Shown here piece by piece: positions 43,645 to 49,757 of a stretch of DNA of 64,000 nucleotides. The notes under the pieces were generated by a model. The model was given only the letters and a program-made list of their open reading frames with translations. It was not told the origin of the DNA and searched no databases. The position numbers and the translations under genes are program-made. The DNA comes from a virus, in the IMG/VR virus record IMGVR_UViG_3300023110_001943, positions 64,001 through 128,000 of that record, one strand, 5' to 3'. How positions within the stretch are numbered: position 1 is the first letter of the stretch; every line of letters begins with the position of its first letter.

Positions 43645-44474
43645 ATTTGGTTACAGTTGTTGGACACAACACAACTCTTCTACCACATATGTTAAATTAT
43701 TACAAAGATATTGTTGATAATATCTATGTAGTTGTGTATCGTCAAAACGAGTTAGATGGTATTTTAGAAGAAGTAGTAAATTTTGGTATCAAACCATATA
43801 AAGTAGTTACAGAGCCAAAATTTAATTGGGAAAGAGTAACAGAATTATATAATGAGGTAAAACAAACCAAACCAGAAGAATGGTGGGTGGTTTCGGATGA
43901 TGATGAACTTCATGTTTACCCAAAACCCTTAAGGGAACTTATCACAGAATGTGATGAGAATGGTTGGGAATTTATCACAGGAGGTTTCCTCGATAGGATA
44001 GGAGAGGGAGGTGAGTTTCCTTTGGTAACAAAAGAAACTAATATTTGGGAATCGTTTCCACTTGCAGGATTTTTTAGATACCCTATGAGTGGAGCAATGC
44101 CAAACAAATGTTGTGTAATGAAAGGTTCGATAAATGTAACACCAGGTCAACACTTTGCTGTAATTGGTGATACTGATACTTGGAGAGAACGAGGATGGAA
44201 TCATCCTAAAAGATATCCTATTGAAAAAGGATTAATTCAAGTTCATCACTTCAAGTGGGATTCTACAATCTTGAAAAGATTAAAAGAAGTTTCGGAAACT
44301 AAAGAAGATTATTCTTATTGGAAAGAGTACAAAAAAATGTATAGAAATATACAAATAAATGATTGGAAAATTAATATTAATAATCCTGCGTTTATGATTA
44401 AAAAAATGAATAGTAAAAACTACGATGAATATTCAGAGTGGGAAAACTTATCTAATGTTATAGTAAAGATATAA
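43632..44474 (+). CDS. GT-A (GT2-like) glycosyltransferase
   Basis: LPHMLNYY, WWVVSDDDELH, GQH and HHFKW. Confidence 0.75.
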   Translation: MQKINLVTVVGHNTTLLPHMLNYYKDIVDNIYVVVYRQNELDGILEEVVNFGIKPYKVVTEPKFNWERVTELYNEVKQTKPEEWWVVSDDDELHVYPKPLRELITECDENGWEFITGGFLDRIGEGGEFPLVTKETNIWESFPLAGFFRYPMSGAMPNKCCVMKGSINVTPGQHFAVIGDTDTWRERGWNHPKRYPIEKGLIQVHHFKWDSTILKRLKEVSETKEDYSYWKEYKKMYRNIQINDWKININNPAFMIKKMNSKNYDEYSEWENLSNVIVKI

Positions 44475-45931
44475 TGGATAAATTAGCAATAATAGTTCCT
44501 TACAGAGATAGAGAAGAACATTTAAATGTATTTGTTCCACATATCCACGAATTTCTTAAAGATAAAGGTATTCGATATTCTATTTTTATTATTGAACAAT
44601 CTGATGATAGACCATTTAATTATGGAAAACTTTGTAACGCTGCAGTAAAAGAAATACCTGAAGAATATACTTACTTTGCTTTTCATGATATTGATATGTT
44701 ACCAATGAATGATGAGTGTGATTATGCTTATCCAGAATCTCCAACACATCTTGCAACCAATGTAGAAGTTCATAACAATGAATTACCTTATCCACAATAC
44801 TTTGGCGGGGTGGTTGTAATTAGTAGAGAAGATTTTGAAAATGCTAATGGTTATTCAAATGAATATTGGGGTTATGGATTTCAAGATTTGGATTTACTAA
44901 AAAGATTAGAAAGAAGTGGTGCTTATCTTGAAAAGTTTTATGATTTAAATAATGTTTATTCAACTTACGATGAATTAGATATTTTACCATACAGAATAGA
45001 AAATGTAAAAATTACTTCAGATAAAAAAGGTCAAACAATTCATTATAACAAATTTTCAAAAACAAATTACATATACGGCCCAATAAATCCTATATTAGAA
45101 TCTGTTTTAGAAAATTCTTTTTCAGTATCTTTTTGGTTTAATGATTCAGCAAAAAGAAAAAATAAAAAAAACTTAGTTACCTTTGAAGGATGTGATACTG
45201 GTGTATTTTTAAGCAAAGGAAATGAACTAATTTTTCAAATTTGGGATAACTTAGAAACCCATACTGAAATTCTACTATCTTATGCAAGAAATCGTTGGAA
45301 TCATTGTACATTCTCATATGATTCAGAAAATAAAAAAATAAGATTAACGATTAATGATAAAAGTGAAGAAATCCAACTCAATGATGGTTTCCAATTATAT
45401 GATTACAAAAAACATTGTATAAAAATATCCGATGGAGAATCACAAGTAGATATATCAAATGTTCTTTTGTATGATGTATATTTTGATTCATCATCTATAC
45501 GAATTTTATGTGATGAAGGAAACTTTGCTTTAGATACATTAGAAACAAATTTAGGAATTACACCATCTTTAAATTTAAGATATGATTCATTATATAAAAA
45601 TAATATTTTGTTAGATTTTGGAAAATGTAAAAATCATATAAAAGTTTATGATTCATTGGATGTAAATAATATGAGTATAATTCCTAATGAATTGTACTTA
45701 CCAATAAGAACAGATGGTGTTTATAAATCATTACAACATAAAGGAGATAAAAAGATTATAGAAAAATATTATAAGTATAATCCTGATATAGAAGAAAATG
45801 CAGATATCTTTTTTGAAGATGTATTGAAAAATAACTTAGATTATAAATCAATTGGATTGAATACATTAAATTATAAGGTTTTACATAAAGAACAAAAGAA
45901 AACATATGAACTTATTAGAATTGTTACATAA
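44474..45931 (+). CDS. GT7 (beta-1,4-galactosyltransferase-like) with inserted LamG domain, paralog 1
   Basis: IIVPYRDR, FNYGKL.N, FHDIDMLP, FGGV, NGYSNEYWGYGFQDLD; LamG insert; C-terminal GLNTLNY. Confidence 0.85.
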   Translation: MDKLAIIVPYRDREEHLNVFVPHIHEFLKDKGIRYSIFIIEQSDDRPFNYGKLCNAAVKEIPEEYTYFAFHDIDMLPMNDECDYAYPESPTHLATNVEVHNNELPYPQYFGGVVVISREDFENANGYSNEYWGYGFQDLDLLKRLERSGAYLEKFYDLNNVYSTYDELDILPYRIENVKITSDKKGQTIHYNKFSKTNYIYGPINPILESVLENSFSVSFWFNDSAKRKNKKNLVTFEGCDTGVFLSKGNELIFQIWDNLETHTEILLSYARNRWNHCTFSYDSENKKIRLTINDKSEEIQLNDGFQLYDYKKHCIKISDGESQVDISNVLLYDVYFDSSSIRILCDEGNFALDTLETNLGITPSLNLRYDSLYKNNILLDFGKCKNHIKVYDSLDVNNMSIIPNELYLPIRTDGVYKSLQHKGDKKIIEKYYKYNPDIEENADIFFEDVLKNNLDYKSIGLNTLNYKVLHKEQKKTYELIRIVT

Positions 45932-46259
45932 TAAAAAAGTTGTTGTTAAATTAGAAAATATAGCAACACAAATACAAGATTTGACAGAATCAGATAATGA
46001 TTTCTCAAATGTTGTACCTTCCGTTGTTATGATGTTAGAAATGATATTAAACGAAAATGGAAGAAGTACGGTATCAAAAGATGTACTCGTACAAAAAGAA
46101 TATGAAGATTTTTTAAAAGATTCGGATATTAAAAAGAAAAACTTTGAAGCTTATTTAAATTCTTCATATCAAAATAAATCTACAAGTGAAAGAAAACTAA
46201 CAGATTATTTAAAAAAGGAATTAATTAAAAACAAAAAGTTGAACTATGGCAACATCTAA
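45906..46259 (+). CDS. Hypothetical protein
   Basis: 117-aa ORF overlapping its neighbours. Confidence 0.55.
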   Translation: MNLLELLHNKKVVVKLENIATQIQDLTESDNDFSNVVPSVVMMLEMILNENGRSTVSKDVLVQKEYEDFLKDSDIKKKNFEAYLNSSYQNKSTSERKLTDYLKKELIKNKKLNYGNI

Positions 46260-47908: not shown

Positions 47909-48315
47909 TGAGCATGTACAAAACAGGTGTAATTGCAGGTAACTTTGATGTTATTCATCCTGGTTACATAAAAATGTTTAAAGAATGTAAATCATATTGT
48001 CAACAATTTGTAATACTTCTTCATGTAGACCCATCAATTGAAAGACCAGAAAAATTAAAACCAATTCTAACCAAAGAAGAAAGAACAGAAATTCTAACTT
48101 CAATTAGGTGGATAGATTCAATTGCATATTACACTTATGAAAAAGAGTTGGTAGAATTATTAAAAGGATTACAACCAGATATCAGATTTTTAGGAGATGA
48201 TTATAGAGGTAAAACATATACAGGTTTCGAATTAGATATACCAATTCACTATTTAAATAGAGACCATGGTTGGTCAACAACCAAGTTTAAAAAACTAATT
48301 GCAGATTCAATATGA
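47905..48315 (+). CDS. Cytidylyltransferase (TagD-like)
   Basis: AGNFDVIHPGY, LGDDY and RDHGWSTT. Confidence 0.85.
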   Translation: MMSMYKTGVIAGNFDVIHPGYIKMFKECKSYCQQFVILLHVDPSIERPEKLKPILTKEERTEILTSIRWIDSIAYYTYEKELVELLKGLQPDIRFLGDDYRGKTYTGFELDIPIHYLNRDHGWSTTKFKKLIADSI

Positions 48316-49757
48316 AATTAGGAGTTTGTGTACCATACAGAAACAGAGAGGCTCATCTAAAAGAATTTGTACCAAAAATTAGTAAGTACCTTGATTCTCA
48401 AGGAATTGATTATTGTATTTATTTTGGACACCAAGTTGATGATAAATTATTCAACAGAGGAGCAACCAAAAATATCGCTGCAAAACACGCATTTGAAGAT
48501 GGTTGTGATTATATCGTTTGGCACGATATTGATATGATACCAGAAGAAGGTGGTGGGGCAGATTATAGTTTTCCAAAAGAAAACCCAAGACATATTGCAA
48601 CTGAAATTTCACAAATGAATTATCAACTAAAGTATGAAGAATACTTCGGTGGTGCAATTGTTTTCTCAAAAGAACAAGTTGAAAAAACCAATGGATATTC
48701 CAATGATTATTGGGATTGGGGAATGGAAGATGATGATTTGTTTTGGAGATGTGTTCTTGAAGGATATGTAAATGATACTTACTTAGATTATACAAAACAA
48801 GAGAAAGATTTTATATCATTTAATGGTAAAGATTCTTATGTACGGATTCCATGTACTCGTTCTCTTCGTAACTTAACTTCTCGTTCACATACAATTTCAG
48901 TATTGGTACGAGCACATCAACAAGAAGAAAAAGTACCTGTTTTCTTAATTGGAGATACTGAAAGAAGATTTGTAGAATATCCGATATTTCGTAGACCAGG
49001 TTATGATTATGGTATATCTTATAATAACTCAAGAGCTTATACCGCACAACTTTGGAACAACCAAAGAGAGCATCTTTATCAATGGATGAAAAGATATGAA
49101 AACCAATGGACTTGGATTACACTTGTTGTTGATAGTAACAATGTTCATTTTTATATGAACGGAAAGGAATCAGATGCTAGATGGGGAACAGGAACACACT
49201 CACCTTTACATTTTGAAGGAATGTTAAAAAGATATGGTAATGTTGATTATTATTTAGGAACTACAACTTCTGTATCTGATGATGAGCCTTCTAAGTGGTT
49301 TAAAGGAGATATTGCAGATGTTAGAATGTGGAATAGAGCACTAACATCTGATGAAGTATCTGAAATACCAAATACAATTTTAGATGATGGGTTATACCTA
49401 CATTACGATTTCAAAGATGGGTTAGTGTTGGATAAAACCAACAATGGAAACGATGGTGTTTCATATAATTGTGAATATAAAAAAGAAAAAGTTGAAATTC
49501 CTTTTACAAAAGTACCACACAGAGTAAATGGTAGAATGTTTTGCTTACCTCATGAAGATGAAGGGTTAGTAAATATAAATGGTATCGATAAATGGGCTAA
49601 AGGTGAAACAACAGCAAGAAACGAAAGAAGGTTTGTAAAAGAAATGCAACAAGGAAATTGGGATTACAAATCTGATGGTATTAATCAAGTTAAATATGAG
49701 TTGGTTAGTATCGAAGAAATTTCACCAAAAGCAAAATACATAAACATTAAGTTGTGA
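48312..49757 (+). CDS. GT7 with inserted LamG domain, paralog 3
   Basis: VPYRNR, FNRGA.KN, WHDIDMIP, WDWGMEDDDL; LamG insert FKGDIADVRMWNRAL; C-terminal DGINQV.Y. Confidence 0.87.
   Translation: MKLGVCVPYRNREAHLKEFVPKISKYLDSQGIDYCIYFGHQVDDKLFNRGATKNIAAKHAFEDGCDYIVWHDIDMIPEEGGGADYSFPKENPRHIATEISQMNYQLKYEEYFGGAIVFSKEQVEKTNGYSNDYWDWGMEDDDLFWRCVLEGYVNDTYLDYTKQEKDFISFNGKDSYVRIPCTRSLRNLTSRSHTISVLVRAHQQEEKVPVFLIGDTERRFVEYPIFRRPGYDYGISYNNSRAYTAQLWNNQREHLYQWMKRYENQWTWITLVVDSNNVHFYMNGKESDARWGTGTHSPLHFEGMLKRYGNVDYYLGTTTSVSDDEPSKWFKGDIADVRMWNRALTSDEVSEIPNTILDDGLYLHYDFKDGLVLDKTNNGNDGVSYNCEYKKEKVEIPFTKVPHRVNGRMFCLPHEDEGLVNINGIDKWAKGETTARNERRFVKEMQQGNWDYKSDGINQVKYELVSIEEISPKAKYINIKL

Follow-up and report, generated by a model that had tools for sequence, protein, structure and literature searches.

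Family GT7 glycosyltransferases with a nested LamG-type domain in an uncultured salt-marsh phage

Among the enzymes of CAZy family GT7, the animal galactosyltransferases B4GalT1 and B4GalT7 (structures 1TVY, 1NF5, 2AE7, 4IRQ and 3LW6) are the reference for the proteins considered here, and the lid segment of B4GalT1 forms part of its acceptor site. The acceptor specificity of this enzyme is altered by alpha-lactalbumin, which binds beside the closed lid in lactose synthase, and the polypeptide GalNAc-transferases of family GT27 join a GT-A domain to a ricin-type lectin domain that steers the choice of acceptor. Viruses synthesise glycans as well, chloroviruses and mimiviruses among them. Mycobacteriophage-encoded transferases glycosylate virions according to Freeman et al. 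(2023), as cited in the 'moraphage' paper PMC12619734; that paper treats phage glycosyltransferase functions in general terms and names neither LamG nor a galactosyltransferase, and neither is named in a paper on cyanophage S-SCSM2R (PMC12801897), in which phage glycosyltransferases are mentioned. The phage glycosyltransferases dealt with in these two sources and in bioRxiv 10.1101/2023.12.21.572611 belong to other families. Here we analyse three neighbouring GT7 genes of an uncultured, lytic-type phage from a salt marsh, whose products each carry a LamG (LG) domain nested within the catalytic domain. The DNA stretch examined, referred to below as the window, is 64,000 nucleotides long and represents bases 64001-128000 of the 141.5-kb IMG/VR virus record IMGVR_UViG_3300023110_001943, which has an estimated completeness of 76%.

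A first-pass annotation of the window had proposed three GT7-LamG paralogs, here called A (P0001), B (P0002) and C (P0003), and all three were confirmed as open frames at the coordinates listed in Table 1. Their products pass the Pfam gathering scores for Glyco_transf_7N (60.6-84.1 bits) and Glyco_transf_7C (62.7-73.9 bits), and for Laminin_G_3 (PF13385, cut-off 27.6 bits) they score 72.8 bits in P0002, 57.3 in P0003 and a marginal 29.0 in P0001. When P0002 was compared with PDB sequences using phmmer, residues 15-166 aligned to human and bovine B4GalT1 with an E-value of 1e-34, and a second, weakly matching stretch (433-481) was colinear with the B4GalT1 C-terminus. AlphaFold2 (AF2) models were built on diverse alignments for P0003 (pLDDT 93.8, pTM 0.89) and P0001 (pLDDT 91.9, pTM 0.81); the architecture of P0002 rests on its sequence and on those two models. 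In local Foldseek comparisons only the first ~153 residues matched B4GalT1/7, and the middle of the model gave separate matches to LG domains, pentraxins and the neurotoxin HCN jelly roll; in the VIA-align comparison, the lactose synthase complexes 1NF5 and 1YRO were among the top structural matches. The predicted jelly-roll fold spans the whole insert, and the B4GalT-type GT-A fold is completed in both models by the C-terminal segment. The models thus show a discontinuous GT-A catalytic domain into which a whole LG/pentraxin-type beta-sandwich of some 240 residues is inserted. The proposal that a LamG-fold insert splits the GT7 domain, and that the C-terminal GT7 elements (a metal-ligand-type His and [DI]G[LI]N) resume after it, is accordingly borne out by Pfam, the AF2 models, the structural alignment and hidden Markov models (HMMs) of the separate parts. 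A circular permutation of the LamG domain, hinted at by a 'D.SGNGN.G' strand that comes after, not before, the Pfam domain, was considered and rejected, since the LG domain of PAPP-A and 4dqa can both be aligned with the model in sequential order as far as its residues 397-401.

The position of the insert can be read from relatives that do not carry it. Many proteins of ~220 amino acids, recovered by an exhaustive search of representative sequences, match the query in two stretches; the part HMMs find in them the core followed directly by the C-terminal segment (in P0220, for example, 3-149 and 152-222), and in the long forms the core, the insert and the C-terminal segment in that order. Because P0220 aligns end to end with 1tvy (E-value 8e-39), ungapped at the insertion region, and because its junction, IDR followed at once by RDGKFLSLNH, corresponds in the alignment with P0002 to IDK, the insert and then HRRKCRFKSLKH, the insertion point falls at about Arg334/Pro335 in bovine numbering. 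The placement first suggested, right after the acceptor-binding loop, holds for the vicinity but not literally, as one further helix separates the WGxEDDD loop from the insert, and the insertion point lies some 10 residues ahead of the lid segment with Met344/His347. Going by the residue roles in the B4GalT1 literature, we take Met344 and His347 to be metal ligands and residues 345-365 to be the long flexible lid. Resolution is poor in the core-domain tree, which was computed by a quick search from 120 rows and 153 columns. Its long forms make up two groups, and at least two changes between presence and absence of the insert are needed to account for the starred branches, so that on this tree a single origin of the insert is neither established nor contradicted. 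The exhaustive search also returned P0147, a 450-residue protein made of two complete insert-less GT7 units fused together. Its halves group in the same tree with the B-type and C-type LamG-bearing clades, a placement that hints at insert loss or independent gains.

Residue conservation was scored over 50 diverse full-length members (alignment A2). The arginines of the PYRxR motif are kept in 47-49 of the 50, the DxD aspartates in 49 (D72) and in all (D74), and the equivalent of the bovine catalytic Asp318, D140, is invariant. Equivalents of Trp314 and Glu317 are present in 47 and 46 members, respectively. A C-terminal His is conserved in 48, with no second conserved ligand; in the ungapped insert-less alignment it falls at position 344 and may stand for either Met344 or His347. 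The equivalent of Tyr289, a residue that restricts B4GalT1 to donors without a 2-acetamido group, is found in 42 members and is Tyr in all three window proteins. Judging by their conserved DxD motif, catalytic Asp and C-terminal His, the window enzymes look active. The GT7 motifs had been described as complete in each protein, which is correct for W-G-x-E-D-D-D in P0002 and P0003 but not for P0001 (YWGYGFQDLD): paralog A reads Y-G-F-Q-D-L-D and its orthologues x-D-L-D, with D138 and D140 retained. On the evidence of sequence, fold and catalytic residues, all three belong to GT7. The paralogs are most alike in the core, at 45-53% identity; the C-terminal lid segment (25-29%) and above all the insert (16-22%) have diverged further. 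Since each paralog type forms its own orthologue group across related phages, the three copies are old and not redundant.

Several features set these proteins apart from the animal B4GalT enzymes. Their chains begin at the first core strand, in an alignment that starts at residue 179-180 of B4GalT1, so that the first ~50 residues of the animal catalytic domain are absent. Searches of the three sequences for a hydrophobic segment, or a type II anchor and stem, found none, and the proteins are thus soluble, unlike the animal enzymes; their phage or bacterial origin, cytoplasmic location, nested ~240-residue LG domain and single conserved C-terminal His are further differences. The insert-less prokaryotic and viral GT7 proteins of ~220 amino acids (such as P0220, P0242 and P0254), with which the giant-virus GT7-like proteins A0A5J6VLB6 and A0A481YZG5 of BFVD are grouped, share the compact core that starts at the PYRxR strand and the SLxH...DGL tail, with 35-43% identity to P0002; in them the first half runs straight on into the second, and only 2-6 residues occupy the place of the LamG domain of the phage enzymes. 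The likeness to GT27 enzymes, a transferase with its own lectin-type domain, is a functional analogy only: family and lectin fold differ, and the GT27 lectin is appended C-terminally through a flexible linker rather than nested. Alpha-lactalbumin, likewise, is a free lysozyme-fold protein, whereas the phage module is a covalently nested LG domain whose effect on specificity would be an extrapolation. The mycobacteriophage, chlorovirus and mimivirus systems resemble the present one in having virus-encoded soluble transferases beside structural genes, proposed or shown to decorate virions; they use other glycosyltransferase families without a nested lectin domain.

GT7-LamG proteins are abundant in sequence collections. 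Of 2455 proteins with significant scores in a word-indexed search, the best 120 all have the same three Pfam families and no functional name, and the exhaustive search gave 5593 matches among 50%-identity representatives, 120 of them below 1e-30. About 28 ESM Atlas clusters of at least 50 members, most with the three Pfam families, have a feature score near 0.99 and are all labelled viral. The top matches in BFVD cover the LamG part or the GT7 part, never both, and tblastn of P0002 against 50,697 GenBank phage records returned zero matches. Among species-representative prokaryote genomes, full-length matches occur in ~12 contigs of metagenome-assembled genomes (MAGs), most of which are probably phage contigs binned with bacteria, because most carry the phage cassette in identical order; ordinary bacterial genomes (Steroidobacter, chlamydiae and others) have insert-less GT7 only. 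One full-length copy (L093) lies on a 196-kb Spirochaetaceae contig (G001:C1, ~118.8-132.3 kb, with flanks L165 and L166), which is chromosomal because it also bears genes for CopA, OppA, CTP synthase (PyrG), sigma-54 (RpoN) and two-component regulators. This copy is accompanied by an ABC-transporter ATPase, two GT4 and three GT2-type transferases (including the Glyco_tranf_2_4 family), an FkbM methyltransferase and a radical SAM enzyme, a set that has the make-up of an ABC-transporter-dependent polysaccharide cluster, from which the phage cassette may derive or to which it may have contributed. Other copies outside the syntenic phage context adjoin either a polysaccharide deacetylase, a carbamoyltransferase and an FkbM-radical SAM fusion or a GT2 gene with an ABC/HlyD exporter. 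A 24.8-kb contig of a Spirochaetales MAG (G003:C13, with L089 and L091) bears three GT7-LamG copies, and with them genes for a 913-residue FkbM-radical SAM fusion, for a carbamoyltransferase and for a polysaccharide deacetylase. Given the chromosomal Spirochaetaceae copy, the architecture is not phage-only, and its usual company is glycan-building and glycan-modifying enzymes. The first-pass annotation had regarded the architecture as undescribed. This agrees with the literature, in that full-text searches pairing GT7 or its Pfam names with LamG, phage or virus found no description, and it needs qualifying in that the architecture is very common in metagenomes and extends beyond phages. The GT7-LamG proteins are common in databases and unstudied.

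The surroundings of the three genes were compared across 80 IMG/VR loci with a P0003 orthologue (58-83% identity), drawn from at least 514 viral hits (Table 1). Two or three GT7-LamG genes per locus are the rule, with three in 42 loci and two in 31. Between paralogs B and C, the window encodes a small protein that matches Pfam CTP_transf_like and scores above the cut-off of NCBIfam cyt_tran_rel. The free-standing LamG protein that follows the radical SAM enzyme is a homologue of the inserts (97.6% probability and an E-value of 2.6e-12 over template columns 202-396 when aligned to A2 with hhalign), and matches to the A2 HMM recur at its position in many related loci. The conserved protein P0283, upstream, has no match in Pfam, NCBIfam or PDB sequence searches, although it may contain a motif of GT-B-like type. 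A homologue of the fibre protein lies within 10 kb in 34 of the 80 loci, a count limited by the length of the flanks; in the window, the translation of the fibre gene reads as a Hint/intein-like segment near the C-terminus (39779-40186). No membrane-spanning protein is predicted within the island. The comparison shows the cassette, which extends over 42859-61744 in the window, to be a conserved set of cytoplasmic enzymes beside a tail-fibre gene.

Table 1. Features of the GT7-LamG cassette and its surroundings (window coordinates; aa, amino acids; occurrence among the 80 compared loci)
Feature	Position	Strand	Evidence, occurrence or remark
Fibre gene, 2221 aa	34283-40948		just upstream of the cassette
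Conserved protein P0283, 389 aa, upstream of the cassette	41560..42729	+	55/80 loci
Promoter-like word TATTTATA, two intergenic copies ahead of the cassette	42742..42778	+	next intergenic copy at 61854
SAM methyltransferase (Methyltransf_24), first cassette gene	42859..43644	+	Pfam; 70/80 loci
GT2-like protein	43632..44474	+	Glyco_tranf_2_4 24.4 bits, under the cut-off of 27.5; 75/80 loci
GT7-LamG paralog A, P0001, 485 aa	44474..45931	+	Q-D-L-D where EDDD is expected
Paralog A, core, aa 1-157	44474-44944		
Paralog A, linker and LG insert, aa 158-405	44945-45688		
Paralog A, GT7 C-terminal lid segment, aa 406-485	45689-45931		
Acidic open reading frame, 87 aa	46246..46509	+	no Pfam match; 68/80 loci; 3' end runs into paralog B in a different frame
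GT7-LamG paralog B, P0002, 482 aa, GTG start	46460..47908	+	Pfam, phmmer, orthologue alignment A1; 78/80 loci
Paralog B, core, aa 1-166	46460-46957		
Paralog B, LG insert, aa 167-410	46958-47689		
Paralog B, C-terminal segment, aa 411-482	47690-47908		
Small protein resembling cytidylyl/adenylyltransferases, flanked by paralogs B and C	47905..48315	+	16/80 loci
GT7-LamG paralog C, P0003, 481 aa	48312..49757	+	Pfam, AF2, Foldseek, VIA-align, residue conservation
Paralog C, core, aa 1-160	48312-48791		
Paralog C, LG insert, aa 161-401	48792-49514		
Paralog C, C-terminal segment, aa 402-481	49515-49757		
N-terminal-twitch radical SAM enzyme	49785..51206	+	NCBIfam NF033640 N_Twi_rSAM 339 bits; 78/80 loci
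Free-standing LamG, 255 aa	51203..51970	+	5' end overlaps the radical SAM gene
SDR, RmlC-like and TPP-enzyme sugar genes	downstream of the window cassette		30-42/80 loci

The window has a G+C content of ~30%, and almost every gene lies on the same strand. Because PHROG matches in the genome include baseplate wedge proteins, a gp46/SbcC-like nuclease and a Nol-type carbamoyltransferase, the phage is assigned to the distant T4-like myoviruses; by its gp46-like protein the closest cultured phage is Microcystis phage Mel-JY01, with merely 38% identity. Near-identical DNA is contained in 13 salt-marsh metagenome runs. Contigs at least 99% identical to the window in four salt-marsh metatranscriptome runs span the fibre gene, the three GT7 genes and the radical SAM gene; they show presence in RNA libraries and are weak evidence compatible with expression in nature, and the bins that these contigs leave uncovered (52009-52675) carry no meaning. 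The word TATTTATA occurs in the window at 8038, 8944, 12056, 24820, 26792, 27958, 34255, 42742, 42771 and 61854, and in 34 copies in the whole 141-kb record. It usually reads taTATTTATAt, stands 15-90 nt (mostly 15-35) ahead of many start codons, is twice preceded by terminator-like hairpins and is probably a -10-like promoter element of the phage. As it is common at intergenic sites throughout the genome, it does not give any timing for the cassette. The T4 late promoter word TATAAATA, of which TATTTATA is the reverse word, was tried as a candidate and is not enriched (14 found, 15.8 expected). Distant from the cassette in this phage, at window 6299-8002, lies the gene of the Nol/NodU-type carbamoyltransferase. 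Its homologues directly adjoin GT7-LamG genes in other contigs (L087 and L089), for which reason it may belong functionally to the GT7-LamG pathway.

Taken together, these data lead us to favour, with slightly better than even confidence, a reading in which the cassette extends a glycan stepwise, the nested LamG domain serves as an acceptor module and the likely target is the glycans of the virion fibres and baseplate. Each enzyme would use a UDP-hexose and a divalent metal and transfer one sugar onto a sugar acceptor by the inverting mechanism expected from the family, with the three paralogs performing different steps or acting on different acceptors. That the bacterial homologue stands in a polysaccharide cluster indicates that enzymes of this type work in glycan assembly. 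By analogy with the animal enzymes, they would extend a glycan rather than start one on protein; to our knowledge every characterised GT7 member uses sugar acceptors, which makes direct action on [ST]GS peptides unlikely. The LG domain, nested at the base of the lid, would be a built-in acceptor-recognition module acting in the manner of the lectin domain of the polypeptide GalNAc-transferases, and the free LamG may serve the radical SAM enzyme likewise. From the pattern of paralog divergence and the presence of the free LamG, we infer that the LG module reads the context of the acceptor, either glycan or carrier, and that the module differs between steps. The earlier idea that the insert selects the substrate fits the divergence of insert and lid and the free LamG beside the radical SAM gene.

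The least certain step is the target itself, which could be glycans on the Ser/Thr-rich fibre and baseplate proteins of the phage, made in the cytoplasm late in infection. Ser/Thr-Gly-Ser is over-represented relative to shuffles of the same proteins, with 13 occurrences observed and 2.1 expected in a 1768-residue protein (z 8), and the enrichment (z 4.7-8) is seen for window 19481-24787, 15136-16200 and 25507-27953 and for a 635-residue open reading frame at 47649-49556 of the genome; it concerns fibre and baseplate proteins, and nothing ties it to the GT7-LamG enzymes. A virion target is favoured by this enrichment, by the proximity of the fibre gene and by the all-soluble enzyme set without exporter or priming enzyme, and within the stepwise-extension reading we regard it as roughly twice as likely as the host envelope.

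A number of observations weigh against stepwise extension on virion glycans. Donor, acceptor and linkage are assigned from distant animal enzymes. The RNA evidence consists of contigs only, without a silent control stretch, and DNA carry-over is possible. In paralog A the equivalents of Trp314, Glu317 and Asp319 are altered, and in a distant A-type sub-lineage (L038, L046, L054 and L069, each at ~6750-8230) F-H-W-x-D takes the place of x-E-D-D-D and I-L-E-N that of S-L-x-H. Because the catalytic Asp and the His are thus both lost, the copies in these four loci are probably pseudo-enzymes retained for another role, and not every GT7-LamG copy need be an enzyme. Finally, the placement of L093 points to a lipid-linked polysaccharide, not a protein, as the ancestral acceptor.

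This last point bears on the strongest of the alternatives, that the cassette remodels an envelope polysaccharide of the host (O-antigen, capsule or S-layer glycan) on its lipid carrier at the inner face of the membrane. The priming enzyme and exporter of the host would be used, LamG would bind the growing polysaccharide chain, and the benefit might lie in blocking superinfection or in keeping progeny off debris. In favour of this, a full-length GT7-LamG stands in a true Spirochaetaceae chromosome amid an ABC ATPase, GT4 and GT2 transferases, an FkbM methyltransferase and a radical SAM enzyme, a second non-phage context combines GT2, an ABC exporter and an HlyD-like gene, and methyltransferase, radical SAM and carbamoyltransferase partners recur in both phage and bacterium. 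The phage record, however, is 76% complete and contains no detected exporter, polymerase, flippase or polyprenyl-phosphate priming transferase (host genes could serve); the island lacks multi-pass membrane proteins, and no protein of the 141-kb record is predicted to cross the membrane more than three times. The island, moreover, is situated among the virion genes of a lytic-type T4-like phage, and we consider envelope remodelling rather unlikely.

The same LamG modules could instead be assembly devices that keep the three transferases in one multi-enzyme complex with the radical SAM enzyme, directly or by way of a scaffold, and not readers of an acceptor. LG domains often mediate protein-protein contacts, one cassette holds four homologous LamG modules, and the pTM values of 0.81-0.89 imply a fixed packing of LamG on the catalytic domain. 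An identity of merely 16-22% among the inserts nevertheless fits different ligands better than a common partner, which makes this explanation improbable. Still less probable is that the GT7-LamG proteins are catalytically dead, lectin-like or structural derivatives of enzymes: the four A-type copies without the catalytic Asp and the C-terminal His and the degenerate EDDD of P0001 would agree with this, but DxD, catalytic Asp and His all persist in the three window copies and in 48-50 of the 50 diverse members. That the enzymes glycosylate phage DNA (hypermodified bases) and so evade restriction is very improbable, for although GT-A-fold DNA glycosyltransferases are known in phages, these are JGT/TarP-like and not GT7 (bioRxiv 10.1101/2023.12.21.572611), the ThyA-family gene of the phage is a bona fide thymidylate synthase above the NCBIfam equivalog cut-offs, a search for Tet/JBP, run without a positive control, gave no match, and the bacterial homologue lies in a polysaccharide cluster.

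GT7, regarded as an animal Golgi family, appears here as thousands of cytoplasmic phage enzymes, and we know of no studied glycosyltransferase in which a domain of lectin type is likewise nested where the catalytic lid hinges. If the insert sets acceptor specificity, it would be a natural case of specificity engineering at the site where alpha-lactalbumin acts on B4GalT1, and a template for glycosyltransferase design. A more speculative suggestion, to which we give little credence, is that the four LamG modules are a shared docking device that brings the sugar-building and sugar-modifying enzymes to the Ser/Thr-Gly-Ser-tagged fibre and baseplate proteins; were it true, very abundant aquatic phages would bear a complex methylated or carbamoylated glycan coat on their host-recognition apparatus, produced by a lectin-guided protein glycosylation system of an undescribed kind. 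Through the bacterial homologue, the product could be identified in a cultivable or heterologous system. Should the cassette indeed modify tail fibres, the host recognition and environmental stability of aquatic phages would be widely influenced by a virion glycosylation that has so far gone unseen.

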